A stretch of 64,000 nucleotides of DNA from Candidatus Aenigmatarchaeota archaeon. GTDB taxonomy: Archaea > Aenigmatarchaeota > Aenigmatarchaeia > PWEA01 > JACQIF01. The translations under genes were made by a program, and so were the position numbers. The stretch lies in the NCBI GenBank assembly GCA_016432325.1, contig CP066684.1, forward strand, positions 704,001-768,000, in the 5' to 3' direction. Positions 17,460 through 55,064 of this stretch are shown piece by piece. The stretch's first letter is position 1; every line of letters starts with the position of its first letter. A model generated the notes under the pieces. It searched no databases and was not told the origin of the DNA. It saw nothing but the letters and a program-made list of their open reading frames with translations.

Positions 17460-17624
17460 AACACATCGCCCCCAATCCGTTCTGAAGTATTCGAACGAGG
17501 TTCGAAGATTTTCACGCGCCCGCCTCCGCGCGGCGTGAAAACTTGAGACCGCGTTTCAAGATTTTCAGGACCTATCCCCTCCATCCGGTCCCGAAGTATT
17601 TGAATGAGGTTCGAAGATTTTCAT
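17448..17624 (-). repeat. three stacked twin-hairpin inserts duplicating the start region NTGAA(A/G)ATCTT
   Basis: Copies begin at 17624 (ATG), 17568 (CTG), 17515 (GTG), 17459 (CTG); periods 56/53/56; units 1 and 3 closely similar. Confidence 0.9.
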
Positions 17625-39369: not shown

Positions 39370-39633
39370 TGGCGGGCCCGGAGGGACGTTCATGAAACGC
39401 CCGGCGTTTCTAACTTTCAGCTCCTTCGGAGCCAAAAGCTTTCGAACCCTCGACATCTTGGTGTCTTTTGCCGAGCGTAGGCATTCGAAGCCAAGCGCTC
39501 TATTTACCCCGCCTTGCGGGAGCGGATTTCATTCGGGAGTGCTCTCCCAATGTGCCGGAACTTTGTTCCGTGCATTCCCGCGGGTTTTTGCACGGACGTG
39601 TGCAAAAAGGCGCCCAAGCTGAGCCACGGACCC
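39370..39633 (-). tRNA. tRNA-Arg(TCG) with three introns (about 39504-39613 D-loop, 39463-39484 at 37/38, 39387-39440 at 59/60)
   Basis: Splicing gives a 78-nt cloverleaf GGGTCCG...CGGGCCC-G-CCA with anticodon arm CTTGG-CTTCGAA-CCAAG. Confidence 0.85.
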
Positions 39634-39686
39634 TTGCGATAGAGGCGTGAGAACAAGGACTTAAAGGTTGTCTGTCAACTGCACTC

Positions 39687-40295
39687 ATGGAAGAACGGGT
39701 TAAGCGGGCTAATCTGGACGTTCCTTTCGTGAAGCAGAGCCGGGATGCCACGTGCGTCTATGCGTCAACGGCGATGGTCCTGCAGTACTATGGCCTCGAT
39801 GTCAGCGAGGCGGCGTTGCTGGACATAGCGCCTGTGGATTTCGATAGAGGCGGAATGACCACGGGAGATTTTCTAAGAATGTTCAACAGGTTCGAGGGCA
39901 AAGAGAAGGCAGGACTGCGGGCCACAGTCTATTCGCGAATGACGCCGGCGGACGCCAAGAGAATGCAGGGCGATTTTCACACCGCGGTCCCAATGCTCCC
40001 AAACGTGATGGAAACCAACGGCCGCGTGGGCCTGTCGCTTGAACGGTTCATAGACTCCGGCATTCCGCCTCTCGTCACAGTCGAGAACCCCGAGTACAGG
40101 GGGAGGCACACGGCCGTGCTGACAGGATATCTGAGGCACGAGTCGGCATTCGTGCCTGTGGTCAATGACCCCGGAAAACGCAGACCGCACATGGCAGATT
40201 CCACGCTTCTTCACAACCTCGGCTGGCAGAACATGAAACGCGTCATCGTCATAGAGAAAACCAAAAGCAATATAAGAGGGCGCGGAACGCAATAG
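39687..40295 (+). CDS. C39-like cysteine peptidase
   Basis: VPFVKQ....C..AS.AMVL.YYG, H..VLTGY, NDP. Confidence 0.75.
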   Translation: MEERVKRANLDVPFVKQSRDATCVYASTAMVLQYYGLDVSEAALLDIAPVDFDRGGMTTGDFLRMFNRFEGKEKAGLRATVYSRMTPADAKRMQGDFHTAVPMLPNVMETNGRVGLSLERFIDSGIPPLVTVENPEYRGRHTAVLTGYLRHESAFVPVVNDPGKRRPHMADSTLLHNLGWQNMKRVIVIEKTKSNIRGRGTQ

Positions 40296-40299
40296 CGGC

Positions 40300-40791
40300 A
40301 TGCGCGCATACAAAGGCCCTCCTTCGCGTCTTGAGCATCTTGTGGACAAAACGATTCCTTTTGCATTGGTTATCCTTCTCGTCCTTCTCGTTTTCGAATT
40401 CTTCTTCGTGGAAGAAGCGCACGCGTACGAGGCTTGGGTGAACGTCGTGGACCTTGGTGTCATCGCGATATTCGCAACAGACCTGTGGTTCAAGTACAAG
40501 CGCCTGCCCGACGGCCGCGCGTTCGTGCGCACGTATTGGCTCGAAATAGTGGCGACCATACCGTTCTTCCTTGCATTCAGGCTGTTCGAGCTTTTGACGG
40601 TCTCGCGTGCTGTCGAAACCGGACAGGAAGCCGTGCACGCCGCCGTGGCGGCGGAAGAGGAAGCCGCGTCTATCCTGCGAACGTCTCGTACGAGCCGCTA
40701 TGCGCGGTTCACGAAGTTCCTGCGAGTCGCGCTGCGCGCTCCGAGGTTCGCCAAGGCGGCCGCCTACTTCAAGGCTCCGCACGAGAAATAA
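40300..40791 (+). CDS. voltage-sensor-like (ion transporter S1-S4) membrane protein
   Basis: D..V..IF..DL, F...W.EI.A.IP, Arg-rich S4-like helix. Confidence 0.65.
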   Translation: MRAYKGPPSRLEHLVDKTIPFALVILLVLLVFEFFFVEEAHAYEAWVNVVDLGVIAIFATDLWFKYKRLPDGRAFVRTYWLEIVATIPFFLAFRLFELLTVSRAVETGQEAVHAAVAAEEEAASILRTSRTSRYARFTKFLRVALRAPRFAKAAAYFKAPHEK

Positions 40792-40822
40792 GGTTTATAT
40801 ATCGGCCCTCCAAAGCACGGTT

Positions 40823-40996
40823 ATGGGACAGGACAACAAAGGAATTATCTCATACTTGTGGCTCGAGATGAAAGGAGCCATAGCCGGCGCCATTCTCGGC
40901 GTCGTCGTGATGCTGATACTGTACTATCTGTCGTCGACGGGCACGCTGCCGTTCACGATGCCGTTCGGAGCGGCTCCTGCGCCTGCGGGACGCTGA
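40823..40996 (+). CDS. small single-TM protein
   Basis: MGQDNKGIISYLW..., one hydrophobic helix. Confidence 0.55.
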   Translation: MGQDNKGIISYLWLEMKGAIAGAILGVVVMLILYYLSSTGTLPFTMPFGAAPAPAGR

Positions 40997-41033
40997 AGGA
41001 ACGGTTTAAATAGATTGGATTTCTAAACGGTTT

Positions 41034-41816
41034 ATGGGACTCAATCCGTTCACCCCCAGCGCCGAAGACCAAGAGGCGACGCTTCTCTACATTCTGGACC
41101 AAGCCATACAGACCACGGCAAAGACGAAGATGGACACGGCGACCAAACAGAAGATTAACTCTTATTTCATTGCAACAAAGAAACTCTCTCGCGACATCGC
41201 GCGCCTGAAGATACCGAAGGGCGAAGGCACAGAAGGCCTTGTCCTGATGGCGCCCCAGTTCGAGCAGATAATAACGGCCTTCGACGCGATTCCGGGCAGG
41301 AACGAACTCGGCGAGTTGAAGACGTACATCGACAACTTCCTCCTCTCCATCAACGCGCTGGGCAAGTATGGAAAGGACGTGCCGCCTTCTGCCGTCGCCA
41401 GAGTCAAGGAGACGTACGTGGACTTCCTGGAGGCCGTGGGCGTCTCCGTCGTTGGCGGTCAGGGAGTCGATATGGACGCGATTCTTCCGAATATCAAGCC
41501 CGCGGAGAGGAAGGCTCTTGAGCGTGCCCTCACCGAGCTGAAGAAGGCTGTGGACGATTCGGTAGCGGCCGCGAAGAAGATGGGGATGCCGACCGCAAGA
41601 GCCGCACATTTGATGATTCTCACCGTGGTGGTGCTGGCTCCCCTAATAGTTTTGTTCTGGGCCGATCTGAAGGTAATCGGAGGAGAGGGCACCACAATGG
41701 AAAAAACGATCGCGGGCTCTATATTGATGCTCGGGTTTATCGCTTCAAGCGTTGCGGCTGCAGACACACTTTGGGAACTACAAATTCAACAGAATAGGCG
41801 ACCGTATCAAAAATAA
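41034..41816 (+). CDS. hypothetical protein with two C-terminal TM helices
   Basis: 260 aa ORF. Confidence 0.65.
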   Translation: MGLNPFTPSAEDQEATLLYILDQAIQTTAKTKMDTATKQKINSYFIATKKLSRDIARLKIPKGEGTEGLVLMAPQFEQIITAFDAIPGRNELGELKTYIDNFLLSINALGKYGKDVPPSAVARVKETYVDFLEAVGVSVVGGQGVDMDAILPNIKPAERKALERALTELKKAVDDSVAAAKKMGMPTARAAHLMILTVVVLAPLIVLFWADLKVIGGEGTTMEKTIAGSILMLGFIASSVAAADTLWELQIQQNRRPYQK

Positions 41817-41878
41817 TTCTTGACGGTAATCTTTGATTCCCCGTCATCTTTATACGCCGCCTTCTGCGAGAATGAAAC

Positions 41879-43579
41879 ATGCATCGCACAGACGTCCTCG
41901 TCATCGGTTCTGGCGCCGCAGGACTCCGCACGGCCATAGAGCTCAACGAACGCGGCGTTGACGTTCTCGTTCTGGGGAAATGCAAAAGGGGCGACGCGCA
42001 CACTGTTATGGCTACTGGCGGGATAAATGCCGCCCTCGCAACGATGGATACCAAGGATTCGTGGCTCGTGCACGTGGCCGACACTTTGAAAGAGGGTCGC
42101 TTCATCGCAGACGCGCGGGAGGTTGAGCTGCTGTGCAGGAACGCTCCGCGCGCGATAAAAGAACTGGCCGATTGGGGCGTCAAATTTCACCGTGAAGCGG
42201 ACGGCCGCCTGACGCAACGCTTCTTCGGAGCGCACACTTACAGACGAACGTGCTTTGTCGGAGATGAGACAGGGAAAGATATAGAGCGCGCACTTGTTAA
42301 AGAGGCCGAGAGAAGGAAGATTCAGATTCTTGGCGAGATGTACATAACAAAACTTCTCAAAAGCGGAGGAACGGTTAACGGCGCGGCCGGCTTTGACATG
42401 CGTACGAACGAGCAGTTCGTCTGCGCGGCGAAGGCAGTGGTGCTCGCCACGGGCGGCCACTCGCGCCTGTATCGCCGCTCCTCATCGCGCATCATGGAGA
42501 ACACGGGCGACGGCGTCACGTTAGCGTACGAAGCAGGCGCGCTTCTCGAAGACATGGAGATGGTCCAGTTCCATCCCACAGGAATGGTCTGGCCGCCTGT
42601 GATGGAAGGGACGCTCGTCACCGAGGCGGTTAGGGGCGAAGGCGGAGTGCTGACGAATGCGAAAGGACAACACTTCATGACAAAGTATGACAGACGCGGA
42701 GAGCTGGGTCCGCGTGACGTCGTGGCGCGCGCGATTTATAACGAGATTATTTCTGGACGCGCGACAAAGCATCATGGAGTATGGCTCGACGTTACGAAGC
42801 TCCCGAAGGAAAAGATTCTTGAGAGGATTCCGAAGGTCTATCGCCAGTTCGCGGAGGCCGGCGTGGACGTCACGCGTGAGCGCATGGAGGTCGCGCCAAC
42901 GGCGCATTATTCGATGGGTGGCGTTCACGTAAAGAACGGTGCGACGCGCGTTCGCGGTCTCTACGCGGTCGGCGAAGTCACGAGCGGCGTCCACGGCGCG
43001 AACCGTCTCGGAGGCAATTCGCTCGCAGAGACCGTTGTTTTCGGAAGGCTTGTCGGCGAAGCCGTGGCGAAGTTCTGCAAGAGAACGAAACGAACAGAAG
43101 CGGATGCGCGGGCCGTTGAGAGGGCGCAGATTGAACTCGAGGATTTGAGGAAACAGAAAGGGAAATACGCTCCGCGGGATTTGCGCGCAGAACTTCAAAA
43201 CGTTATGTGGGACAATGCAGGAATAGTGAGGAACGCGCGCGACCTGAAAGAAGGGATGGAGAGGCTGGGCGAACTGAGAAAGAAGATGGACGAAATGGAC
43301 ATATCGGGGACGGCCGAGCGCCTGGTGACGGCCCTCGACTTGAAGAATCTCCTCGTGCCTGCGGAAGCCGTTCTCAGAAGCGCGCTTGTCCGTTGCGAGA
43401 GCAGGGGCGCGCACTACCGTTCGGACTATCCGGAAGAGAGCAGGCGATGGACCGCGAATATAGGATGTTCAAAAGGCAGCGGCGGAATGACCGTTTCGAA
43501 GAGACCCGTTCCGAAACCTTCTGAAGCGATCCTGAAGGCCGTCAAAAGTGTAGGAGCCGCGCACAAGCTCCTTGAGTAG
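41879..43579 (+). CDS. succinate dehydrogenase/fumarate reductase flavoprotein family (SdhA/FrdA/NadB-like)
   Basis: GSGAAG, AHTVMATGG, QFHPTG, EAVRGEG, HYSMGG, HGANRLGGNSL, ESRGAHYR. Confidence 0.9.
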   Translation: MHRTDVLVIGSGAAGLRTAIELNERGVDVLVLGKCKRGDAHTVMATGGINAALATMDTKDSWLVHVADTLKEGRFIADAREVELLCRNAPRAIKELADWGVKFHREADGRLTQRFFGAHTYRRTCFVGDETGKDIERALVKEAERRKIQILGEMYITKLLKSGGTVNGAAGFDMRTNEQFVCAAKAVVLATGGHSRLYRRSSSRIMENTGDGVTLAYEAGALLEDMEMVQFHPTGMVWPPVMEGTLVTEAVRGEGGVLTNAKGQHFMTKYDRRGELGPRDVVARAIYNEIISGRATKHHGVWLDVTKLPKEKILERIPKVYRQFAEAGVDVTRERMEVAPTAHYSMGGVHVKNGATRVRGLYAVGEVTSGVHGANRLGGNSLAETVVFGRLVGEAVAKFCKRTKRTEADARAVERAQIELEDLRKQKGKYAPRDLRAELQNVMWDNAGIVRNARDLKEGMERLGELRKKMDEMDISGTAERLVTALDLKNLLVPAEAVLRSALVRCESRGAHYRSDYPEESRRWTANIGCSKGSGGMTVSKRPVPKPSEAILKAVKSVGAAHKLLE

Positions 43580-43634
43580 TTAAACGCGCGTTCACCGGAG
43601 CCATTTATATTGCCCCGCGCCGACCGCCTCTTCT

Positions 43635-44876
43635 ATGCCAACCAAGGACACCAACGGCGACCTGAAGAAGGCGGCCTTGAAATACCATGCGGACGCGCCG
43701 GCAGGAAAGATAGGAATCGTTCCCACAAAACATCTGAGGGGCAAGAAGGACCTTGCTCTGGCGTACACGCCTGGCGTGGTTTACCCGTGCCTCGAAATCA
43801 AGGAGAACGTTGAACGCGCCTATGACTACACATCCAAAGGAAACACTATCGCAATTCTTACAGACGGCTCGCGCATTCTTGGCTTGGGCAACATCGGGCC
43901 TGAAGCCGGACTGCCGGTGATGGAAGGAAAGTCATTGCTGTTCAAGATGCTCGGAGACGTGGACGCCATACCGATATGCGTGCGTTCGCAGGACACGCAA
44001 CGGATCGTGGATACGATGGTCGATATATCTCCGGGGTTCGGAGGCGTCAACGTGGAAGACATCAAGCATCCGAGATGCTTCGAGGTGGAGGAAACGCTCG
44101 AAAGAAGACTGGACATTCCCATATTCCACGACGATCAACACGGAACGGCCGTTGTCACGCTCGCCGGTCTGATGAATGCGTTTAAAGTAACCGGCAGGAA
44201 GCTTCGCGATGCGCGCATTGTGGTCAACGGCGCAGGCGCCGCCGGCCGCGGCATAACGAAATTGCTTTTGCACGCAGGAGCTCGGGACGTCATAGTTATC
44301 GACACCAAGGGACCCCTATACGAAGGGCGCGCGGGGATGGACCGGTTCAAGGCAGAGCTCGCGATGCATACGAACCCCGACAGAAGAAATGGAGGTCTTG
44401 AGAACGTGATGATTGACGCGGACGTGTTTATCGGAGCGTCTTCCGCCGGACTCCTGGACCCGAAGCTTGTGCGCGTGATGAACGACAAACCGATAGTCTT
44501 CGCGCTTGCGAACCCGGTTCCTGAAATAGACCCGCTCGAAGCCAAGAGAGCGGGCGCGGCCGTTGTCGGAACTGGCTCTTCCCGCTACGCTAACCAGATT
44601 AACAACGTGCTCGCTTTCCCCGGGATGATGCGCGGCATGCTCGACGTGCGCGCGAAACGAATAAACGACGAGATGAAACTCGCGGCCGCGCAAGCCATCG
44701 CAGACAGCGTCAAGCCAACAGCCGAGCGCGTCGTGCCTGACGCACGCACGGTCGTGGCGCACAAGGTAGCCGCTGCGGTCGCCAAGGCCGCAGAGAGCAC
44801 CGGCGCCGCAAGGAAAGGAATAGGAGGCCTGAAGAAGTACGAGAAAAGCGTCTACGACAGGATAGCGGCGCGCTAA
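43635..44876 (+). CDS. NAD(P)-dependent malic enzyme
   Basis: YTPGV, GLPVMEGK, EDI, HDDQHGT, GAGAAG, ALANPVPEI, NQINN. Confidence 0.95.
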   Translation: MPTKDTNGDLKKAALKYHADAPAGKIGIVPTKHLRGKKDLALAYTPGVVYPCLEIKENVERAYDYTSKGNTIAILTDGSRILGLGNIGPEAGLPVMEGKSLLFKMLGDVDAIPICVRSQDTQRIVDTMVDISPGFGGVNVEDIKHPRCFEVEETLERRLDIPIFHDDQHGTAVVTLAGLMNAFKVTGRKLRDARIVVNGAGAAGRGITKLLLHAGARDVIVIDTKGPLYEGRAGMDRFKAELAMHTNPDRRNGGLENVMIDADVFIGASSAGLLDPKLVRVMNDKPIVFALANPVPEIDPLEAKRAGAAVVGTGSSRYANQINNVLAFPGMMRGMLDVRAKRINDEMKLAAAQAIADSVKPTAERVVPDARTVVAHKVAAAVAKAAESTGAARKGIGGLKKYEKSVYDRIAAR

Positions 44877-44910
44877 TCAAAGTTATAAACCCACAATATA
44901 AATTCGCTCC

Positions 44911-45606
44911 ATGGTCAATGAAGGCGGTCTGCTCAACGGACTAATGCTCGTTGCGGCATCTTTCATCTTCTTGTTGAGCGTCTATCTGGAACACCGCCGG
45001 TGGAAAGATCTCCTATCCTCGAGCGCGATGGGCATCTCTACGGTCTTCTGGACGCTGGCCGGAGCGCTCACGTTCTTCATGGGCGCGAGACAGATAGCCG
45101 CATATTTCGGGGCTTATGGAATCGACAAGACGTTTTTCCTGGCGGCAGGGATACCCGGCTCTATAATCGCCGCGCCTGTGATAGGACTATTGGTCTTTAC
45201 GCTCACTGGAGACAGAAAGAGGACCCTGCTTGCCGAGCTGGCAGTGGCCCTTCTGGCGCTCTGGAGCGTGATACTCGCGGCTCAGGAAGGTTTCGTCGGA
45301 CCGCACGTCACCTACTGGGGAACTCAATATGACCTTGTGAGCGGTCTCGCCAAGATTGTGATAATGGCCGGACTGCTCCTTCCCGGAGTCATAGGCTCCG
45401 CGGCCCTTCTGTGGATGTCCAGATATTCGCAGTCTCCCAGAATCGGGCGCTCCCTGTTCCTGTCGTCGCTCTCGATGCTCGTGTTCATGGCTTCGGTTTC
45501 GCTGGATACTATTATCGGAGGCAGCAGCGGAGAGTTAATATTGCTGTTCAGGTTGCTGGTCGTGGCGAGCGCGGTTCTTGCGTTCAGGGCGTACGCCGTC
45601 GAATAG
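44911..45606 (+). CDS. multi-pass membrane protein
   Basis: About seven hydrophobic helices. Confidence 0.7.
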   Translation: MVNEGGLLNGLMLVAASFIFLLSVYLEHRRWKDLLSSSAMGISTVFWTLAGALTFFMGARQIAAYFGAYGIDKTFFLAAGIPGSIIAAPVIGLLVFTLTGDRKRTLLAELAVALLALWSVILAAQEGFVGPHVTYWGTQYDLVSGLAKIVIMAGLLLPGVIGSAALLWMSRYSQSPRIGRSLFLSSLSMLVFMASVSLDTIIGGSSGELILLFRLLVVASAVLAFRAYAVE

Positions 45607-45903
45607 CTAGCCTTCGAGTATTTCTCCGAAGCACCTGCGGAAGTAGTCCCTGGCGTATCGCATGGTCTTCGTTCCTTCCGGCGTCAGCGCGTAGACGATG
45701 GTCTTGCCGCGCTTCTCCCCCTTTATCAGTTTCTTCGTCGTGAGGTCCTTGAGCGCCGGGTATATCGTGCCGGCCTTGGGCTTGCCGCCGCGGCGCTTGC
45801 CTATCTCCTGCGCGAGCTCCTCCCCGTGCATCGGCTTCTTCGCGAGCAGGTAGAGTATCTGGAAGGAAAGCATCCCCCGCATGTCGCAGCCTATTTTTTT
45901 CAT
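45607..45903 (-). CDS. PadR family transcriptional regulator
   Basis: IL.LL...PMHG, GTIYPAL, Y.LT..G. Confidence 0.9.
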   Translation of the reverse strand: MKKIGCDMRGMLSFQILYLLAKKPMHGEELAQEIGKRRGGKPKAGTIYPALKDLTTKKLIKGEKRGKTIVYALTPEGTKTMRYARDYFRRCFGEILEG

Positions 45904-45979
45904 ATCACCACGCCAAGTATAGGGCATCCTATGTATTTATATAGTAATCGTGTCCAATATAGGACATCCGATACGACGT

Positions 45980-46087
45980 TACGGAGGTGTATGAAAGGGA
46001 GCGCCTTTCAAACCTGCACGGGAACGGCGGTTCCCGGCATGCCGGCGGCGAGGCTGCCGTGCATCCTCGCAAGCGCATACGGAGGTG
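45980..46087 (+). repeat. nested twin-hairpin inserts duplicating an SD site
   Basis: tacggaggtg at 45980 and 46078; inner TGCA-bounded unit 46015-46063. Confidence 0.75.
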
Positions 46088-46094
46088 AGTTCAA

Positions 46095-46343
46095 ATGATG
46101 TGCAACATTTCGGCATGCGATGAGAGCGAATACGACTACCTCGAATCGAGGCTGACAGCATTCGCCGAGGCCGCGCACAAGCAGCTGCTTTTCGAGAAGA
46201 TAAAGCAGAAGATAGAGGAGAAGGAAGGCGCGAAACTCGACAAGATAGCCGACCTGCTCGTGGACGCGTTTTCGAGCGAGCAGAACGCGGAGAGAAGCCG
46301 CGAAGAGTTCAGGGACAAGCTGAGAGAAACGTTTGAGGAGTAG
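46095..46343 (+). CDS. small helical hypothetical protein
   Basis: 82 aa, GGAGGTGA SD. Confidence 0.7.
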   Translation: MMCNISACDESEYDYLESRLTAFAEAAHKQLLFEKIKQKIEEKEGAKLDKIADLLVDAFSSEQNAERSREEFRDKLRETFEE

Positions 46344-46345
46344 AA

Positions 46346-46912: not shown

Positions 46913-46942
46913 GTTAATATTATAAGCAATCAAATCCTGTGC

Positions 46943-48394
46943 ATGCACTATCGCACCGAGCGCGACGTACTGGGCGAGAAACGCGTTCCGGCGGACGCGT
47001 ACTACGGCATATTCACCGAACGCGCGCTTGAGACGTTTCGCATATCCGGGACGCGGACGCATTCTAAGATGATATGGGCTCTCGGCGTGATAAAGGAGGC
47101 CGCGGCAGAAGCGAATCGCGAGCTGGATATGCTCGACCAGAAGGCTGCGAGCGCCATTGTGAAGGCGTGCAAGGAGGTCCAGAACGGCAAGTTCAACCAT
47201 TTCTTCGTTGTCGACGACTATCAGGCCGGCGCAGGCACTCCGATGAACATGAACGCTAATGAGGTCATCGCGAACCGCGCGACAGAACTGCTGGGCGGCG
47301 CTCTCGGCGAGTACAAGGTCAACCCGCATGACCACGTCAATATGGGCCAATCTTCCAACAATGTGATACCCACAGCGATGCGCATATCCACGTTCTTCAT
47401 GATGAACTCGCTAATAACAGAGCTGCGAATGCTCGAGGCGTCGCTGCGCAAGAAGTCGCAGAAGTTCCGTGACGTAATCAAGGTCGGACGCACGCATCTG
47501 CAGGATGCGGTCCCGCTGCTTCTTGGACAGGAGTTCGAGGCGTACGCCGAGTACGTCAAGCGCGGCTACATGAGACTAAAGAACGCACAGGACGAACTGC
47601 GCGAACTTGGAATAGGAGGCACGGCGATTGGCACGCAGATAACCGCACATCCGAACTTCAGGAAGACCTGCGTGAAACACATCAACAAGATTACAGGCGA
47701 GAGATTCCACCACACAGAGAGCGCCGTATACCTGACACAGAGTGTGGACGTGTTCGTTCACGTTTCGGCGGAACTGCGCGCTCTCGCGACCGATATGCTC
47801 AAGGTGTGCAACGACTTGGTTCTGCTCACTTCAGGACCGAAAGCCGGTTTCCATGAGATTGAACTGCCTCCGGTGGAGCCCGGTTCGTCGTTGATGCCCG
47901 GGAAGGTAAATCCTTCCGTGGTCGAGGCATACAAGATGGTCTGTCTGCAAGTATTGGGCAACGACCACACAATAGAACACGCCTCGCGCGAAGGACAGCT
48001 CGAGCTGAACGCGATGACGCCTGTTATTTCCCACAATCTTTTGCAGAGCATCGATCTGCTTACGAACGGCACGAAGATGTTCAGGGAGAGATGCGTCGAC
48101 GGGATAAAGGCAAACAGAGAAGTCTGCGAGCGCACCTTCACCAACAGCCTTTCTGTTGCAACGGCACTCACGCCTTATCTCGGATACGAGGTGACGGCCC
48201 ATCTGGTTAAAGAATCGCTGAGCAAAGGCGTGACGATAAGAGACGCTGTTCTTGACAGCGCGCTGATGAGCGAGGCAGAGCTGACGCGCGTCCTGAATCC
48301 GCAGAGGCTCACGCGTCCGTCCATAGTGGACCGCGCTTTGAAGGAGAAGATTTTGCGCAGCGATGCGTTCCGCAAGCTGGCGAGGAAGGTTTGA
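46943..48394 (+). CDS. aspartate ammonia-lyase / class II fumarase
   Basis: GAGTPMNMNANE, QSSN, GRTHLQDA, GSSLMPGKVNP. Confidence 0.92.
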   Translation: MHYRTERDVLGEKRVPADAYYGIFTERALETFRISGTRTHSKMIWALGVIKEAAAEANRELDMLDQKAASAIVKACKEVQNGKFNHFFVVDDYQAGAGTPMNMNANEVIANRATELLGGALGEYKVNPHDHVNMGQSSNNVIPTAMRISTFFMMNSLITELRMLEASLRKKSQKFRDVIKVGRTHLQDAVPLLLGQEFEAYAEYVKRGYMRLKNAQDELRELGIGGTAIGTQITAHPNFRKTCVKHINKITGERFHHTESAVYLTQSVDVFVHVSAELRALATDMLKVCNDLVLLTSGPKAGFHEIELPPVEPGSSLMPGKVNPSVVEAYKMVCLQVLGNDHTIEHASREGQLELNAMTPVISHNLLQSIDLLTNGTKMFRERCVDGIKANREVCERTFTNSLSVATALTPYLGYEVTAHLVKESLSKGVTIRDAVLDSALMSEAELTRVLNPQRLTRPSIVDRALKEKILRSDAFRKLARKV

Positions 48395-48424
48395 GTTTAT
48401 ATCCTTTTCCGTCCATCTGAGGCC

Positions 48425-49543
48425 ATGGTCGATGTGGCGAGGATTCTCGAAGACTATAATAAAGAAGCCCTCACTGTCGCAACTCTCGGTTCTCACAGCG
48501 CGCTTGACATCGCGAAGGGAGCGCACGACGAAGGCTTTCAGACGCTTGTCGTCGGCCAAGACGGGCGGGAAGGGCCGTATCAGAAATATCGACATGACTG
48601 CGATGAGAACGATTTTTGCAGGGGCTGCATAAACCACGTCGAAGTTCTGGACAAGTTTACAGATATGGCAACACCAGAGTTTGTGGAAGGACTTCAGACG
48701 CGCAATGCCATCTTCGTTCCACATCGTTCTTTCTCCGTTTACGTTGCGCATAAGATAGGCTACGATGCCGTCATGGACATGGAGGTTCCGTTCTTCGGCA
48801 ACCGCGCGCTCTTGCAGGCGGAGGAGCGCGGACCCCTGGCGCCCAAGCTTAATCAGGATGCGCTTCTTGAACTTGCCGACATTCCGCGGCCGAGGACGTT
48901 CGCATCGCCGGACGAAATCGATATGACCGCCATCGTCAAGGTAAGCAAGGGCCACGGCGACCGCGCCTTCGAGCGTTCGTTCTTCTACGCGCGCAACAAA
49001 GAGGAGTTCTGGCAGAAGGGTAGCAAACTGGTCGGCGAAGGGAAGACGACGCGCGAGCAGCTAAAGGATGCGCACATGGAAGAGTACGTCCATTCGGTCC
49101 GCGAAGACGCGCTTGGAAACGTTCTGGAAGTTCCGGCGCCCAAGTACAACTTCAATTTCTTCAATTCGCCGTTCCACGGACTCGAGTTGCTCGGAATCGA
49201 CACGCGTGTCCAGGCTTCCAACGGCGAAGAGCTTGCGCATCACCCCGGCAGCCTGAAGGAGTCTTTGCTTTCGCAGGTCTTCGACCTAGGCGAGAGGTTC
49301 GTTAATGTTGCGAAAAAGCACGCCGCGCCCGGAGTCATCGGACCGTTCGCCCTGCAGGCCATTTTCAAGGGAGAGAAGGCGCTCGTGTACGACGCGAGCC
49401 TGCGAATGCCGGGCTCTCCTGACACGGAGTTCACTCCGTATTCAGGATATCTGTTTGGCAAACCTGTCAGCTTCGGCAGGCGCATAGCGATGGAGATAAG
49501 GGAGGCAGCCGGCAGGGACGAGCTTCTGGAAGTAGTTACTTGA
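48425..49543 (+). CDS. PurP-like ATP-grasp protein (DUF1246/DUF1297)
   Basis: LGSHSALDI..GA.DEG, VPHRSF..Y, FGNR, GPFALQ, GRRIA.EI. Confidence 0.85.
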   Translation: MVDVARILEDYNKEALTVATLGSHSALDIAKGAHDEGFQTLVVGQDGREGPYQKYRHDCDENDFCRGCINHVEVLDKFTDMATPEFVEGLQTRNAIFVPHRSFSVYVAHKIGYDAVMDMEVPFFGNRALLQAEERGPLAPKLNQDALLELADIPRPRTFASPDEIDMTAIVKVSKGHGDRAFERSFFYARNKEEFWQKGSKLVGEGKTTREQLKDAHMEEYVHSVREDALGNVLEVPAPKYNFNFFNSPFHGLELLGIDTRVQASNGEELAHHPGSLKESLLSQVFDLGERFVNVAKKHAAPGVIGPFALQAIFKGEKALVYDASLRMPGSPDTEFTPYSGYLFGKPVSFGRRIAMEIREAAGRDELLEVVT

Positions 49544-49594
49544 GTCTTGCCGACCAGAAAGTCTATTTAAAAGGGCCGGCTCATCAGGAAACAT

Positions 49595-49657
49595 ATGCGG
49601 GAGTAGCCAGAACTGCGGTTCTGAAACTCCCCCATTGAAGAACATGCGGGAGTAGCC
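49595..49657 (+). repeat. twin-hairpin insert duplicating the tRNA-Leu(GAG) 5' end
   Basis: atgcgggagtagcc at 49595 and 49644; CAGAAC-TGCG-GTTCTG hairpin; ACTCCC complement. Confidence 0.85.
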
Positions 49658-49867
49658 TAGACTGGTCAATGGCGCCGGCTTGAGGGGCCGGTTCCTTAGT
49701 GGATTCGCCGGTTCAAAGCTTTTTGCGCCAATGCGCATAAAGCTCAACGCGCAAAAGGCTTTAGCAGAAATACGCCTTCGTGCATCTTCGAACGATTGCG
49801 TTCGAAGTATTTCGGACGCAGTCCGAAAACGAAGGCGCGCGTTTCGAAATTCCGGCCTCCCGCACCA
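49646..49867 (+). tRNA. tRNA-Leu(GAG) with 133-nt intron at 59/60 (49718-49850)
   Basis: CCGGC-TTGAGGG-GCCGG anticodon arm, long variable arm, 89-nt mature form, encoded CCA. Confidence 0.92.
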
Positions 49868-49897
49868 CTATTTATTCGTTTACACGAAGCGTTGTCC

Positions 49898-50113
49898 ATG
49901 GCATGCGATACGTGTGGCTCGAAGGAAGATCATGACATCTGCATTCTAGGAGTAGAACGGTTGGACATGTACTACGATCCGGCAGGCATCGATGACATGG
50001 CGGAACCGCCGATCGACGAATACGCCGAGAGGAGATTGCGATTGTCTTCTGCCGGCAATCGATCCAACCAAAGAAAACTCGACGACTACGTTATTTCTTC
50101 CCTGCCTTCTTGA
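49898..50113 (+). CDS. small CxxC hypothetical protein
   Basis: MACDTCGSKEDHDIC...; TATA-like sequence after the tRNA. Confidence 0.45.
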   Translation: MACDTCGSKEDHDICILGVERLDMYYDPAGIDDMAEPPIDEYAERRLRLSSAGNRSNQRKLDDYVISSLPS

Positions 50114-51620
50114 CTTTCTTCACCACGTGCCCCTTGACTTCGTCGCCGAAGGAACGGTCTTCCTCGACCCGCTTTTCCGCGCGCTCTGGAACCATCTGCG
50201 GGAATAAAATGACTTCCTTTATGGAGCTCTGGTTGGTTAGCAGCATCACCAAGCGGTCTATACCGATGCCTACGCCGCCTGTGGGAGGCATGCCGCACTC
50301 CAGCGCGCGTATGAAATCTTCATCCATCTGGTGCGCTTCCGCGTGTCCGCGCTTGCGCATCGCGGCCTGCTGCTCGAAGCGCGAGCGCTGGTCTATCGGG
50401 TCGTTGAGCTCCGAAAACGCGTTGGCGAACTCGCGGCCCGTGATGAACAGCTCGAAACGCTCGGTGACGCCCGGTTCCCCGCGCTTCATCTTTGCGAGAG
50501 GCGACACCTCAACAGGATAGTCCGTTATGAACGTCGGGTTAACGATTTTTGGTTCGACGAACTCCTCGAAGAACGCTTCGATGAGCTCTCCGCGAGTGGC
50601 GCCCTTGTCAGTTTCGAGACCGTGTTTCTTCGCCAGCGCGCGCAGCTCTTCCAGCGTACGGCCGAAGGTTTCGATGCCGGCTCCGCGCACGGCGTCTTCC
50701 ATCGTGACGCGCCTCCACGGGGATTTGAGGTTTATCTTCTGGCCTTGATATTCGAATTCGAGCGTTCCGAGCGCCTTTATAGCAACGTGCTGGAATAGCC
50801 GCTCAACAAAGCCCATCATGTACTCGTAGTCCACGTACGCCTCGTAGAACTCCAGCATCGTGAACTCCGGGTTGTGCGTCGTATCGATGCTTTCGTTACG
50901 GAAGTCCTTGCTTATCTCGTAGACCTTTTCCATGCCGGCCACGACGAGACGTTTCAGGTACAGTTCGTCCGCGATGCGGAGATACATATCGACATCCAAA
51001 TCGTTGTGATGCGTTTTGAACGGGCGTGCCATCGCGCCGCCGTATATCGGCTGCAGTATCGGCGTCTCGACCTCGACGTAGCCGTGCTTGTCGAGAAACT
51101 CGCGCGCCGCCTGTATAATCTTGGTGCGCGCGGCGAATATCCTGCGCACGTCGGGGTTCATCACCATATCGAGATATCGCTGCCTGTAGCGCACCTCGAC
51201 GTCCTTCAAACCGAACCACGTCGACGGAATCGGATAGAGGCATTTGGAAAGCAGCACGAGTTCTTCGGCCGCGATGGAGACTTCTCCCTTGAGAGTCTTC
51301 ATGACCTTGCCTTTCGCGCCTATGTGGTCGCCGCGGTCAAGCAGACGGGAAATCCATGCGTACGCGTCGCCTATAGAGTCCGCGGACACGTAGACCTGAA
51401 TCTTGCCTGTTGCGTCTTGCAAATCGATAAACGTCAGCTTGCCGTGAGTGCGTATGCCGTAGATGCGGCCCGCCACGCTGGCGCGCGCGCCTTCGTGCTT
51501 CGCGTAGGCGTTCACTATGTCTCCCGCGGTGTGCGTGCGGTCGTATGCGTACGCAAAGGGCTCGATGCCCAGCTTCTTCAACTCTTCCAGCTTGCGCAGG
51601 CGTTCTGCACGTGTGTCCAT
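50091..51620 (-). CDS. lysS: lysine--tRNA ligase, class II
   Basis: RYRQRYLD, EVETP, GGA.ARPF.T, LRIA.ELYLKRL, FRNE.ID.THNPEFT, G.GIGIDRL. Confidence 0.96.
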   Translation of the reverse strand: MDTRAERLRKLEELKKLGIEPFAYAYDRTHTAGDIVNAYAKHEGARASVAGRIYGIRTHGKLTFIDLQDATGKIQVYVSADSIGDAYAWISRLLDRGDHIGAKGKVMKTLKGEVSIAAEELVLLSKCLYPIPSTWFGLKDVEVRYRQRYLDMVMNPDVRRIFAARTKIIQAAREFLDKHGYVEVETPILQPIYGGAMARPFKTHHNDLDVDMYLRIADELYLKRLVVAGMEKVYEISKDFRNESIDTTHNPEFTMLEFYEAYVDYEYMMGFVERLFQHVAIKALGTLEFEYQGQKINLKSPWRRVTMEDAVRGAGIETFGRTLEELRALAKKHGLETDKGATRGELIEAFFEEFVEPKIVNPTFITDYPVEVSPLAKMKRGEPGVTERFELFITGREFANAFSELNDPIDQRSRFEQQAAMRKRGHAEAHQMDEDFIRALECGMPPTGGVGIGIDRLVMLLTNQSSIKEVILFPQMVPERAEKRVEEDRSFGDEVKGHVVKKVKKAGKK

Positions 51621-51673
51621 CGACTTCACCCATGTACGATGGATAATTGAAACCGCAGTTTCATATTGTCCAT
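51614..51673 (-). promoter_or_regulatory. twin-hairpin leader/uORF duplicating the lysS start
   Basis: ATGGACA at 51673 and 51620, period 53; TGAAAC-TGCG-GTTTCA hairpin; TATCCATCG complement; SD GGTGA. Confidence 0.8.
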
Positions 51674-51777
51674 GAGAACCATTTGCACGCGAAGGTTATA
51701 AGAACGTTACTGAGAAGCCCGTTGGAACCATTCTTCTGAGACAATCAATACTCTAATCCATTCAAGACTCGCTTCCG

Positions 51778-52170
51778 CTACGCGCCCGATCGCCTTTTCT
51801 CCCAAGCGCGTATCGTCTCCGTTGCAGTATCCCGTGCTCTGATGCCATCTCCCAGCATCTTGTATGCGTCAAAAAGTATGGGCCCGCCGTACACCATGTC
51901 AACCTCATCGAGGCAATTCTGCACGCTTTCCACTATCATGGTAAGGTCCTCCCTTGGCACACGTATCCCGTATTCTGTGATTAGGCCGAGAACGTTCCAT
52001 GCCTCGTCGCGGTCGGCATCTTCTGCTTCGTGCGAGCCGCTTGCCAGATAATCCAGAACCTTTTCCCTGGCCGCGATCAGCTCTTCCTTTCCAAGGGCCT
52101 TATTCCGTTCTCGTATATCCAAGGCGCTGATTCGTTCTCGTTTATCCGGGTCACTGAATGAAGGCCTCAT
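51778..52170 (-). CDS. hypothetical protein
   Basis: 130 aa ORF with an upstream TTTAAATA box. Confidence 0.6.
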   Translation of the reverse strand: MRPSFSDPDKRERISALDIRERNKALGKEELIAAREKVLDYLASGSHEAEDADRDEAWNVLGLITEYGIRVPREDLTMIVESVQNCLDEVDMVYGGPILFDAYKMLGDGIRARDTATETIRAWEKRRSGA

Positions 52171-52216
52171 TGTACAACCGAGCCAATAACGCGCGAAAGC
52201 TATTTAAACCGATGTC

Positions 52217-53275
52217 TCACTTCTCGGCCATTATCTCCTTGACCTTCTTTTCCAGATCGGTTTTGTAGGTCTCGGAACGGTCCTCTTTCGAATAGAAGTC
52301 GGTCTTCGCTGCCATCGATATCTTCGCCGCCAGAGCACGCGCGACCTTGCCCCTTTTCTCCTGCGGCGCGTGCTGGATGTACGGATGCGTGAACAGCAGT
52401 CCATACTTGGGCGGTCGCGCGTCCCGTGCGCCCTGCTTGCGCGACTTCATGAAACGGAAGAGCGCCTTCTCCGCGCCGAGGAGCTGTATCGTGGACGCAG
52501 GCATCTTGGCCAAACGCTCGAGAGAGCCGGCGTGCTTGATCATCTTCGCCGCCAGTATCGGTCCCGCGACGGCCGTTGTGTTGGGCGCGACTCCGGGCAT
52601 CGCCCGTTCGAGATACATTTCGTAATCCCTTTTGAGGCCGAACAGGTCCACGGTTTCCGCGGCGTGCAGTCTTATCTGTTCGAGGTCGTCCTCCTCTATG
52701 TACGTGCCTATAGTGTCTTCCTCGCGTTTCGCCCCGTCGACTATCGCCTGCGCGTACTTCTCGTTGTCGCGAGTCTTGCGTTCCAGTTCCGGATGGTAGA
52801 TTCCGTACCACTCGTGCAGGCGTTCTGACATCACGTTCGCTATCTCTGTCAGGTCTTCGATGGAAGCGACGGCCTGCGCGACTATCTTATCCTTGTTCGG
52901 TTTCGCCTTCAGTTTTTCCTTTGTTTCCAGCCGCGCGAGCTCGGAGAGCAGCGCGTTCAGCTCCTGCTGGTCCTTGACAAACCCCGTTTCGACTGCAAGT
53001 TTGCGGACGTTGCTCGCCGCGTACTGCGCGCCCGGGTTGCCGGGCTCGCGCGTTATCTCAAAGCCTTCGTACTCGAAACCCAGGTCTGTGACGAGCGCCT
53101 TGTCCTTGGCTGTCGCGAGAACCTCGTCCAGTTCGGGCGTAGTGACTCCCTTGCGCAGGACGTGCAGCCGCTCCTTGATGGTCGCTGCGTCCCTTGGAAA
53201 CAGGGAGAAGGCTGCAACGTTGAAGTCCTTGTCCAGCGCGAAAACGCCCGCGTAGCAGGCTGTCACGTACAACAT
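52217..53275 (-). CDS. nop5: C/D box sRNP protein Nop5/Nop56
   Basis: RLHEWY..H.PEL, APN...VAG, LAKMPASTIQLLGAEKALF, PKYGL, RGK.ARALA.K. Confidence 0.93.
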   Translation of the reverse strand: MLYVTACYAGVFALDKDFNVAAFSLFPRDAATIKERLHVLRKGVTTPELDEVLATAKDKALVTDLGFEYEGFEITREPGNPGAQYAASNVRKLAVETGFVKDQQELNALLSELARLETKEKLKAKPNKDKIVAQAVASIEDLTEIANVMSERLHEWYGIYHPELERKTRDNEKYAQAIVDGAKREEDTIGTYIEEDDLEQIRLHAAETVDLFGLKRDYEMYLERAMPGVAPNTTAVAGPILAAKMIKHAGSLERLAKMPASTIQLLGAEKALFRFMKSRKQGARDARPPKYGLLFTHPYIQHAPQEKRGKVARALAAKISMAAKTDFYSKEDRSETYKTDLEKKVKEIMAEK

Positions 53276-53306
53276 ATCCGACCGCTCCTCTGAAAGGGTC
53301 GCTCGC

Positions 53307-53376
53307 GAAGGTTTAAATAGCTCATGCCGCAAGGGCGGGAGCTTTAAACCGCCCAGCGCCCGGAAGGTTTAAATAG
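53307..53376. repeat. twin-hairpin insert duplicating the TATA box between nop5 and rps17e
   Basis: gaaggtttaaatag at 53307 and 53363; ctttaaacc complement between. Confidence 0.8.
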
Positions 53377-53397
53377 GCAACGTCTAAACCTCCAGCT

Positions 53398-53691
53398 ATG
53401 GGAAGAAACGAAACCTTCGGTTTCAATCTTCCCCGTGAGTTGAGCTATATGGGAAGAATAAAGACCGCGCAGGTGAAGTCTCTCGGCAAGGATTTCGTCA
53501 AGGCCTATCCGGACAGGTTCACGACAGACTTCGACAAGAACAAGGAGATTCTGGCGACGGCCCAGATGAAGTCCAAGTGGCTCAAGAATCGTCTGGCCGG
53601 ATACACGGCGAAGCTCATGAAGCAGAAGGCCCGCGGCGTCATCATAACCGCTCCTCAGAAACAGGAAGAAGAGAAGAAGGAAGAGACATAG
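53398..53691 (+). CDS. rps17e: 30S ribosomal protein S17e (conserved start at 53449; 51-nt in-frame insert upstream)
   Basis: MGRIKT..VK, FTTDFDKNK, SK.LKNRLAGY; ATGGGAAGAA duplicated. Confidence 0.93.
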   Translation: MGRNETFGFNLPRELSYMGRIKTAQVKSLGKDFVKAYPDRFTTDFDKNKEILATAQMKSKWLKNRLAGYTAKLMKQKARGVIITAPQKQEEEKKEET

Positions 53692-53698
53692 TGGGATT

Positions 53699-54067
53699 TG
53701 GTGCGGAGGGCCGGACATTCTCCATGAATGCGCCAAGGCACATCGTGCCCGCAGGCGGATTTTTCATGAAAGTTTTTGCACGGAAGTGTGCAAAAAGTTT
53801 CGAACCGACGAACGCACTAAGCGACCAGATATCTCGAAGCGCATTTTTGATTTTCGCGTTTCGGATAAGCCTTCTTGAGTGTTGCCTCTCACAGAGTTTC
53901 CTCTCGAAACTCAAGGAACTGGCACCGTTGGTCTACGACTTCGTGTCGGAAGACGTACTTTCCGTGCATCTCGGAACGCGTGCGTTCCGAGTTTCCGAAT
54001 ACCGTTCGGAAATGCTTTTGCGCTCTGTGGCGCAAAAGCTTGCTTGGCCAGGCTTGGTTACCTCCGC
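53699..54067 (-). tRNA. tRNA-Leu(CAA) with four introns (53928-54043 D-loop, 53881-53918 at 30/31, 53831-53873 at 37/38, 53716-53798 at 59/60)
   Basis: Splicing gives an 89-nt Leu cloverleaf with CCAGA-CTCAAGA-TCTGG, long variable arm and A-CCA. Confidence 0.82.
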
Positions 54068-54127
54068 AAACTAAACCGACTTTCTTGCGGCAGGTACAAG
54101 AAGCTTTGCTTCTTGGTTACCTCCGCA
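54053..54127 (-). repeat. twin-hairpin insert duplicating the tRNA-Leu(CAA) 5' end
   Basis: 16-bp repeat TGCGGAGGTAACCAAG, period 59; AAGAAGC-AAA-GCTTCTT hairpin; TACCTGCCGCA complement. Confidence 0.85.
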
Positions 54128-54159
54128 TTGCTAATCGCTTCAGAAACAAAGGATATAAA

Positions 54160-54726
54160 TCACTTAATCCTCGCAAGCTCCTTTTTCAGGTTGGAAAGCT
54201 CGCTCTGCAGCTCGGAGACGTATTGCGTTACGCGCGCCCGCTCCTTGGAGCGCGGTATCTCTATCTCCGCCTCTTCGGGGCGCACGAACTCGCCGTCCAG
54301 AGAGATGAGGACGTCTGTGAGGTCCGTGACCGCCTGGCGCATCGCCTTCATGGTGCTGTCGCGGACGTGCTCCACTTCGTTCAAAAGGACCATTGTATCT
54401 GTCACGCTATGCAGGGACACCTTGATTTCCTCGAGCTTCTGGAGAATCTCCTTGTATCTGTCGATTTTGACGAACAGAGGCGCCATTTCTGACGCACGGA
54501 GAGTGCGTTCCACGGTCTCACCGACAGGCGGCCCGTACACCGGCATCTGAGGAGCTTGCGGAACAGGACCGGAGATGGGCTGGGGCGTCCATGAAGGTGC
54601 AGGAGGCAGGGCCATGGAAGGCGGAGCCATCGGAGGCAAGGGCGGCAGAGGAGGTCGCGCGGCGCCCACCCTGTCTTTTACGGCCTGTATGTCCGTGCGC
54701 TCCTCGCTCTTCTTCCAGAAAGCCAT
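54160..54726 (-). CDS. Pro-rich, coiled-coil hypothetical protein
   Basis: PLFVKIDRYKEIL followed by a coiled coil. Confidence 0.7.
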   Translation of the reverse strand: MAFWKKSEERTDIQAVKDRVGAARPPLPPLPPMAPPSMALPPAPSWTPQPISGPVPQAPQMPVYGPPVGETVERTLRASEMAPLFVKIDRYKEILQKLEEIKVSLHSVTDTMVLLNEVEHVRDSTMKAMRQAVTDLTDVLISLDGEFVRPEEAEIEIPRSKERARVTQYVSELQSELSNLKKELARIK

Positions 54727-54808
54727 TCGCATCCCTATAAGTGTAACAACTGCATAGTGTTCAGGGGAACCCATTTATAAACGTTTCAGCAGTTCTTATC
54801 GTTAACGC

Positions 54809-54935
54809 GCGCCGATGATCTAGTGGCATGATTCGAGCTTCCCAAGCTCGTTGTGCGGGTTCGATGACATCCTGTCCCATGGGGCGGGAGGTTTGAAACG
54901 CGAAGCGTTTCAGGAATATCCCGCTCGGCGCACCA
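54809..54935 (+). tRNA. tRNA-Gly(CCC) with 53-nt intron at 59/60 (54866-54918)
   Basis: GCGCCGA/TCGGCGC acceptor stem, CGAGC-TTCCCAA-GCTCG anticodon arm, encoded CCA. Confidence 0.92.
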
Positions 54936-54964
54936 TTCTAAACCTTCTTGTCTCCGCCTCCTGC

Positions 54965-55064
54965 CGTGCACGGAAAACGGAAGTTTTCCGGCATTTTCGA
55001 ACAGTGGTTCGAAAGGTTCGGATTGCATCCGAACATGCCGAAACGTCTATGCCGTTTCGTGCAC
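54965..55064. repeat. nested twin-hairpin inserts (four hairpins)
   Basis: cgtgcac at 54965 and 55058; hairpins CGGAAAAC/GTTTTCCG, TTTCGAAC/GTTCGAAA, GTTCGGA/TCCGAAC, GAAACG/CGTTTC. Confidence 0.75.

Follow-up and report, generated by a model that had tools for sequence, protein, structure and literature searches.

Nested DNA hairpin modules in the tRNA introns and at non-tRNA sites of an Aenigmatarchaeota genome

The unusually long, putatively protein-spliced introns that interrupt almost all tRNA genes of an Aenigmatarchaeota (DPANN) genome from groundwater are probably mosaics of DNA hairpin modules, built in three layers of which the second and third would be mobile or recombining. We analyzed a stretch of 64,000 nucleotides (the window), corresponding to genome positions 704001–768000 of a single 874,869-bp contig, with emphasis on the tRNA genes between 39.4 and 55.1 kb; coordinates labeled ‘genome’ refer to the whole contig. 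The modules are DNA hairpins of 25–60 bases, drawn from a small set, and are found inside tRNA introns, between genes and, in frame, within a protein gene. An earlier note, made from the sequence of the window, had proposed that hairpin modules are shuffled and nested across intron positions and non-tRNA sites, with the implication that the nested units might be spliced stepwise. Our data support one nested module family that lies both inside and outside tRNA genes; they do not support stepwise splicing.

tRNA genes are extensively interrupted

Our search for tRNA genes required an acceptor stem of 7 bp with NCCA, a T-stem of 5 bp with TTCRA directly behind it, and D and anticodon stems that match. 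It recovered ∼40 tRNA genes of 88–430 nt genome-wide. Only ∼6 have an uninterrupted T-loop, while 31 carry 44–143 extra bases there; a long D-loop region is seen in ∼25 and a long anticodon region in ∼28. Removal of the introns restores a canonical tRNA, with all stems pairing in the recovered genes, and the junctions of the Gly-CCC, His, Gln, Ile, Leu-GAG and Phe tRNAs are matched by intron-free orthologous loops. The long introns highlighted in the earlier note measure ∼113, 116 and 133 nt, much as it had described.

The tRNA finders in standard use overlook most of these genes. ARAGORN with default settings reports no tRNA in the window and Rfam reports one; genome-wide, ARAGORN with introns allowed finds 10 and the Rfam tRNA model finds 8 over its cut-off, such that 0 to 10 of about 40 are detected. 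Across 40 relatives, matches to the Rfam model range from 0 to 38 per genome, which suggests that tRNA gene disruption is very uneven among relatives of the class.

Motif matches exceed compositional expectation

The sequence matches that had drawn attention to these introns are real and significant. A 26-nt element of the Arg D-loop intron, CTTTTTGCACAC[G/T]TCCGTGCAAAAAC (39584–39609, minus strand), recurs in the Leu-CAA T-loop intron (53772–53797, minus strand) with 25/26 positions identical, against 0 expected from 100 shuffles. The motif CTTTT(T)GCGCC..GCGCAAAAG starts both the Leu-CAA D-loop intron (∼54014–54039, minus strand) and the Leu-GAG T-loop intron (∼49718–49759, plus strand). TGCACGGRA occurs five times in the window, compared to 1.04 expected, and none of 100 shuffles reaches five. 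Its positions are 39566 (Arg D-loop intron), 46015, 54967, 53960 (Leu-CAA D-loop intron) and 53777 (on the other strand of the 26-nt hairpin). All sites that had been listed for this motif are present, and the copies at 39566, 46015 and 54967 make up one well-defined bulged-hairpin family. The Leu-CAA D-loop copy is looser; because its orthologues read TCCACGG or TCTACGG, we assign it to the backbone linker (see below) rather than to the bulged-hairpin module.

A fourth match had been claimed between the Leu-GAG intron (ATCTTCGAAC..GTTCGAAGTATTTCGG, 49786–49828) and units in the leader of a DHH-like open reading frame (ORF), with counterparts at 17484–17514 and 17593–17623. These do belong to one twin-hairpin class, although the pairwise match is weak: the 10-mer ATCTTCGAAC, with one mismatch allowed, has 10 matches against 6.4 expected and is not significant alone. 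Hairpins with a YTTCGAAC arm, on the other hand, number 17 in the genome versus 0–1 in four Markov genomes. For the four motifs in the order given here, hairpins containing them number 6, 2, 6 and 17, compared to 0, 0, 0 and 0–1 in the composition-matched controls (four second-order Markov genomes). An 11-mer over-representation analysis was swamped by the CGCG-rich composition and was dropped.

Three layers of modules

Layer 1 comprises a few families of backbone introns. Family A and the T3 type are clearly one design, in which a hairpin with a T-rich stem (hp1) is joined by a short palindromic linker, which reads CCCGCGGG in copies from D-loops and TTTCATGAAA in those from T-loops, to the sequence AAAAT(A/C)CGCC and a terminal mini-hairpin. 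Over 38 nt, the hp1 at 49718–49759 shares 92% identity with the D-loop intron of another tRNA (genome 802144).

Layer 2 (class I) is a 48–56-nt dyad of bulged hairpins with the framework TGYAC-G[stem..stem]C-GRCA^TGYC-G[stem..stem]C-GTRCA, the ends of which form a 5-nt inverted pair (TGYAC/GTRCA). There are 15 strict copies in the genome, including the unit at 54967–55063, versus 0 in four simulated genomes; the stems vary and covary. The units at 46015–46063 and in the Arg intron (39528–39574) have the class I design and lie outside the strict pattern.

Layer 3 (class II) is a 42–46-nt twin hairpin composed of alpha (CTT..AAG), TA and beta (TTT..AAA). It has 20 strict copies, with a median pairwise identity of 70%. 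Members in the window include Leu-GAG 49786–49828, Leu-CAA 53970–54012 and the inner part of 54967–55063, and the leader units of the DHH-like ORF are of the same kind. Class II twins lie in either orientation, inside the loops of other modules, and both alpha/beta orders are seen relative to the tRNA strand. Perfect hairpins form 58 tandem arrays, compared to ∼10 in Markov genomes, and arrays of at least three hairpins number 8, compared to 0. Stems of at least 7 bp that start with TTT (51 versus 3.5) or CTT (33 versus 7.2) are likewise enriched, whereas single perfect hairpins overall are enriched merely 1.2–1.5 times.

Each of the hp1 5′ arms at 39584–39609, 49718–49759, 53772–53797 and 54014–54039 contains a run of 4–5 T. 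Archaea use oligo-T as a signal for termination, and elsewhere copies of the T3 type lie directly behind stop codons; a role for hp1 in transcript 3′-end formation is conceivable.

Introns are shared between positions and nested within one another

All-versus-all comparison of the D, anticodon and T intervening regions, a check that the earlier note had called for, yielded 102 pairs at E<1e-3. Thirty-six of these join different intron positions (D–T 23, anticodon–D 8, anticodon–T 5). The Arg D-loop intron, for example, matches the anticodon intron of tRNA-Gly(TCC) at genome 211186 over 94 nt with 91% identity, and the T-loop intron of the tRNA at genome 60785 equals the D-loop intron of the tRNA at 640902 at 36/36 positions. 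A T-loop family present in eight tRNAs also supplies the anticodon intron of the tRNA at genome 32481. The family-A backbone is found in the D-loop introns of at least eight tRNAs, in the anticodon intron at genome 211186 and in two T-loop introns.

Comparison of paralogous introns reveals sites that are empty in some copies and filled in others, bearing out the idea of units inserted into units. The family-A junction ..CGCGGGAA|ATCCGC (GGGAA^ATCCGC) is empty in at least six copies and holds a 47-nt unit, class Ib, in three, including the Arg D-loop intron; the same unit also sits within backbone-type elements at genome 652.7k and 546.7k. In the D-loop intron at genome 620436, a class II twin occupies the hp1 loop, which reads ACGTCC in the copy at 258221. 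Two T2-family introns (genome 246820 and 258221) contain a class I dyad in a loop that is 4–8 nt long in four other copies. Finally, class II twins sit exactly at the centre (CA^TG) of the class I units at 54967 and at genome 103.7k, 127.2k and 441.7k. The order of these centre twins is reversed once (441.7k), and in one case two further hairpins lie between the twin halves.

Empty and filled sites in related species

We compared these loci with a whole congeneric genome (G001; 90 contigs, 540 kb) and with one contig of a third species (L023), the proteins of which are 60–76% identical to those of this genome. Orthologous tRNAs of this genome and G001 differ in intron presence at at least 10 sites. 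Solely in this genome are the T-loop intron of Gly-CCC (the G001 and L024 orthologue is intron-free, with T-loop TTCGATT), the anticodon and T-loop introns of Gln-CTG, the T-loop intron of His and the D-loop intron of Phe. Solely in G001 are the D-loop and T-loop introns of Ile-GAT, the D-loop intron of Leu-GAG and the anticodon intron of Ala-GGC. At the T-loop site of the Trp, Tyr, Phe, Gly-TCC and Met tRNAs, the intron family differs between the two genomes. The T1 family, for instance, occupies Tyr, Trp and others here and Gly-TCC in G001, with 95–98% identity. Family A has changed position in tRNA-Ser(GGA): it is a D-loop intron in G001 and a T-loop intron here.

Nested units differ between orthologous introns as well, which extends the evidence for insertion to three species. 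In the D-loop intron of Gln-CTG, hp1 has the loop TTCC in G001, and here a 56-nt class I dyad occupies that loop. No twin is present in the Leu-CAA D-loop intron of G001; its counterpart here has a beta-alpha twin after hp1, and that of L023 has an alpha-beta twin further downstream. The twin at 53970–54012 is thus missing from the orthologous introns of L037 and L023 alike. When the 5′ halves of the three Leu-CAA genes were aligned with MAFFT, the exons matched up and the differently nested introns did not; the introns were decomposed by reading. The exons of tRNA-Leu(CAA) are common to the orthologues in L037 (G001) and L023. The L023 Leu-CAA D-loop twin is identical at 45/45 positions to the Leu-GAG T-loop twin of this genome, the best match of which within its own genome is 86%. 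In the orthologous Leu-GAG intron of G001, a twin lies elsewhere, in the opposite order.

Searches farther afield returned little. The exact alpha-beta pattern had 0 matches in public genome contigs and viral contigs; the family-A pattern had one match in public genome contigs (a congeneric metagenome-assembled genome) and 0 in metagenome contigs. When the Arg locus was searched as DNA against 40 relatives, the only match beyond this genome was one of 30 nt to an exon.

Copies outside tRNA genes

The tie between tRNA introns and mRNA or intergenic inserts, also put forward in the earlier note, holds for three module classes, with copies in introns, in a 5′ leader, behind stop codons and in frame in a protein gene. 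The 5′-leader cassette around 46015 (Table 1) has no counterpart in the orthologous leader of G001, which has one ribosome-binding site and no cassette. T3-type elements lie behind stop codons at genome 652.7k, 689.0k and 872.6k, and the 3′-trailer composite at 652.7k has no counterpart behind the orthologous gene of G001, which is 75% identical. At genome 316899–316944, a class II twin makes a clean in-frame insert of 48 nt (16 codons, LRSDASKYLKPDGFQN) in a conserved helicase-like protein; the orthologue in G001, 76% identical, lacks this insert. At genome 546660–546830, the start of a pilin-like ORF (..KGISPVIASIIL..) is interrupted by a T3-type element, within which a class Ib unit is nested. 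At this last site the frame stays open, KGISP codons are duplicated and internal ATG codons are supplied.

The congener has a gene-end hairpin cassette of its own, between an ORF end and tRNA-Gly (L024 1500–1610, the same as L012/L076; G001 contig C51). On either side of it lies a copy of an 11-nt repeat, of which the stop codon is a part (TCTTTGGTTAG / TCTTCGGTTAG).

Splicing enzyme and geometry

The sole splicing endonuclease unit found is of alpha type: a single endA gene (genome 849784–850062, minus strand; 201 aa; PF02778 and PF01974), with best PDB match 1a79, the M. jannaschii homotetramer. Alpha4 enzymes with an extra loop have been reported in DPANN lineages rich in disrupted tRNAs (PMC5829648).

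The intron-free orthologue places the splice point of the Gly-CCC T-loop intron at 59/60. In 26 of the 31 T-loop introns, T54–57 can pair at three or four of four positions with a 4-nt stretch that ends two bases short of the 3′ end of the intron, compared to ∼15% expected, bearing in mind that the 31 introns come from related families and are not independent trials. Such pairing is in register with a bulge-helix-bulge site that stacks on the T-stem. The same 26 of 31 introns show a relaxed (hBH) form with a central helix of 3–4 bp in the right register.

How the mosaics may arise

We favor a scheme in which the long introns of the 39.4–55.1 kb region would be cut by the single alpha-type endonuclease at relaxed bulge-helix-bulge sites. 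Backbone families would be copied as whole units between tRNA genes and among their D-loop, anticodon-loop (37/38) and T-loop (59/60) sites. The anticodon and T loops share a geometry of 5-bp stem and 7-nt loop, with the intron after the sixth loop base, and therefore only the last few intron bases would have to match the local loop. Class I and class II, in turn, would be small non-coding mobile or recombining DNA units that land in loops or junctions of existing hairpins, in either orientation and with no recognizable target duplication. They would survive in introns because introns are removed, and they also survive in leaders, trailers and, if a multiple of three in length, inside proteins.

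Events at the DNA level are indicated by the occurrence of modules in both orientations, the in-frame protein inserts, the copies in spacers and the lack of a reverse transcriptase match. The clean empty/filled pairs share just 0–4 nt of junction identity. Given that none of seven transposase or integrase families was detected and that no consistent target duplication was seen, transposase-free copying or an enzyme acting in trans seems to us the better candidate. Template switching (copy-choice) or microhomology-mediated copying at hairpins would be examples of the former.

Several points weigh against this scheme. No match to Y1/HUH (PF01797), TnpB, reverse transcriptase, Cas1, IS110, DDE_Tnp_1 or rve was obtained on the 875-kb contig (90% marker completeness). 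Direct repeats that flank twin-hairpin arrays are no commoner than at random sites, and no consistent target duplication or long terminal repeat is apparent. On the splicing side, strict hBHBh′ motifs (3-nt bulges, 4-bp central helix, helices on both flanks) number 30 in 40 loci versus 29.3 in shuffles, and a scan for them recovers just one expected intron in the window. At the splice site a junction of hairpins takes the place of the inner helix, and strict motifs show no enrichment, so that the substrate would be the relaxed hBH form; an alpha4-like enzyme is classically strict. Splicing itself would follow from the need to restore canonical tRNAs and from the geometry. Furthermore, T1-family and His anticodon introns are 97–98% identical between species with 60–76% protein identity, which hints at selection on RNA rather than at neutral passenger DNA. 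Compensatory substitutions in hp1 and class I stems, with junction bases fixed, likewise fit a purely neutral view poorly.

A bolder version of the mosaic scheme, which we regard as possible and hold only tentatively, casts the twin-hairpin units as the agents that create new archaeal tRNA introns, by transposase-free hairpin insertion at the DNA level and at any site, perhaps even crossing between co-occurring species. Units that land in a tRNA loop would then become introns, with the loop and the unit’s own hairpin coming near enough to a relaxed splice motif. If so, the birth of introns, their growth by nesting and their spread could all be read in living genomes.

The 97–98% identity of the T1-family and His anticodon introns speaks for a different view, namely that the modules have a function as RNA, for example as folding scaffolds, as sites of protein binding or as stable circular intron RNAs, and are kept by selection; their sharing would then come from duplication of useful introns and from gene conversion between tRNA genes rather than from selfish mobility. 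The compensatory changes around fixed junction bases fit this view too, as do box C/D-like CTGA..GATGA pairs in several anticodon introns. Yet the twins occur in either orientation, both in spacers that are not translated and, in frame, within a protein; their presence at orthologous sites is lineage-specific, and different families replace each other at the same tRNA site. We consider this view unlikely.

Less probable again is the suggestion that nested units are complete mini-introns, each equipped with a splice motif of its own, inserted at the RNA level and removed stepwise. The nesting is real, and a CCC directly after hp1 in family A pairs with the exon GGG, leaving a 4-nt bulge between them that resembles half a splice motif. 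Nevertheless, no strict bulge-helix-bulge motif lies at any module border in the tRNAs of the window, no reverse transcriptase was matched, and the insert in the protein gene has a length divisible by three and keeps the frame open. Since the twins lie in both orientations relative to transcription, DNA-level insertion is the better explanation than nested RNA introns.

Convergence or chance in a genome rich in CGCG-type words and palindromes has next to no probability: the modest enrichment of single perfect hairpins and the non-significant 10-mer ATCTTCGAAC would suit it, but matches of 26–94 nt at 91–100% identity, and motif-bearing hairpins, arrays and a class I framework that are absent or nearly absent in second-order Markov genomes, refute it.

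Comparison with known systems

Repetitive extragenic palindromic (REP) sequences, their doublets (REPINs) and bacterial interspersed mosaic elements (BIMEs) are short, palindromic, non-coding hairpin repeats, often doublets, present in tens of copies, which insert near or into each other and are associated with RAYT (Y1 HUH) transposases. The modules described here are similarly short, palindromic, hairpin-forming, dispersed and nested. They differ in that no Y1/RAYT gene was matched in this genome (PF01797), copies lie inside genes and introns and not merely between genes, and the bulged-hairpin dyad is a framework with variable, covarying stems. Rickettsia palindromic elements and Correia-type miniature inverted-repeat transposable elements resemble the modules as small palindromic inserts tolerated in genes, even in frame. 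Unlike in those systems, no consistent target duplication, long terminal inverted repeat or partner transposase was found here and, to our knowledge, building tRNA introns is not a feature of either.

In the Thermoproteales, introns are shared across tRNA genes and positions by a mechanism described as unknown (Fujishima et al. 2010, Mol Biol Evol 27:2233, as related in PMC4090602). The resemblance is close: highly similar introns occur in unrelated tRNA genes and at different positions (here, 36 cross-position pairs at E<1e-3) and, going by that account, several introns per gene, gain after speciation and a mechanism thought to act on DNA are common to both. Within the limits of the same account, this genome is set apart by its DPANN lineage, by a single alpha-type endonuclease in place of an (alpha-beta)2 enzyme with crenarchaeal loop or an epsilon2 enzyme, and by introns that are long mosaics of nested hairpin modules, which also occur in leaders, trailers and a coding sequence. 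A 2026 preprint census of Asgard archaea also describes tRNA genes that are mostly interrupted, many introns missed by standard annotators and repeated gains. It found no route of intron arrival; here, by contrast, copying between genes and shared mobile modules are both evident.

We searched the literature for work on the tRNA introns of Aenigmatarchaeota, or on hairpin modules as a material of introns, and found none. On the question of how archaeal tRNA genes acquire introns, the Thermoproteales work, to the extent that it is related in the source above, inferred transposition without a vehicle. In this genome the intron material can be traced: the same modules occur outside tRNA genes, lie nested in one another and differ in presence between sister species at orthologous sites. 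This makes it possible to test, in one small genome group, how introns are gained, grow and are replaced, with a visible source for archaeal tRNA introns.

Features of the window and minor observations

Table 1. Interrupted tRNA genes and hairpin modules, in window coordinates
Feature	Position	Strand	Remarks
tRNA-Arg(TCG)	39370–39633	−	Three introns: D-loop 39501–39620, anticodon 39462–39490, T-loop 39386–39446; stems pair without introns
tRNA-Leu(GAG)	49646–49867	+	133-nt intron in T-loop region 49712–49851; T-loop intron of G001 orthologue (L081) homologous
tRNA-Leu(CAA)	53699–54067	−	Four introns: D 53927–54054, anticodon 53829–53918 with 7-nt anticodon exon, T 53715–53804
tRNA-Gly(CCC)	54809–54935	+	53-nt T-loop intron of two hairpins (region 54860–54919)
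hp1 hairpin, family-A backbone, Arg D-loop intron	39584–39609	−	T-rich stem; 25/26 identical to 53772–53797
Class Ib 47-nt bulged twin hairpin, nested in family-A backbone	39528–39574	−	TGC-A-CGGAAC..GTTCCG-GCA, then CAT-hairpin-A-ATG
hp1 hairpin, T3-type backbone, Leu-GAG	49718–49759	+	CTTTTTGCGC..GCGCAAAAG, 20-nt loop
Class II twin, Leu-GAG	49786–49828	+	Alpha CTTCGAACG..CGTTCGAAG, TA, beta TTTCGGAC..GTCCGAAA; in loop of outer hairpin 49773–49837
hp1 hairpin, T3-type backbone, Leu-CAA T-loop intron	53772–53797	−	In G001 orthologue, stem rebuilt by compensatory changes and loop longer
Class II twin, Leu-CAA D-loop intron	53970–54012	−	Beta-alpha order relative to tRNA; between hp1 (54014–54039) and backbone tail
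Class I dyad with class II twin (∼54994–55036) at centre GGCA^TGCC	54967–55063		Between tRNA-Gly and end of ORF 55047–55778 (minus strand)
5′-leader cassette, 98 nt: hairpin and class I dyad (46015–46063)	45980–46087	+	Flanked by 10-nt repeat TACGGAGGTG that duplicates the ribosome-binding site
Two alpha-type hairpin repeats (ATCTTCGAAC..GTTCGAA TACTTC..)	17484–17623	−	Ahead of DHH-like ORF; each starts with a gene-start copy; 31 nt, 94%

The ORF at 55047–55778 was considered as a GIY-YIG nuclease or mobilizing enzyme; it has no Pfam match, and we do not propose such a role for it.

Four anticodon introns (genome 204221, 314349, 629854 and 829428) contain CTGA, a hairpin and GATGA at the canonical position and resemble box C/D (K-turn) motifs. 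The guide RNA in the tRNA-Trp intron is a known box C/D case.

Upstream of both tRNA-Leu genes (49595–49657 and 54053–54127) lie a copy of the gene’s own first 14–16 bases, a small hairpin and a stretch complementary to the copy. Together, the copy and its complement make an acceptor-stem-like mini-helix directly 5′ of the true gene start. The L023 orthologue (3870–3925) has the same design with a different sequence. In a mirror image of these duplicated gene starts, the last 9–10 bases (..GGTCCACCA) of two tRNA genes (genome 641110/641201 and 830053/830148) recur 91–95 nt downstream, and a twin-hairpin array lies between the two copies in each case.

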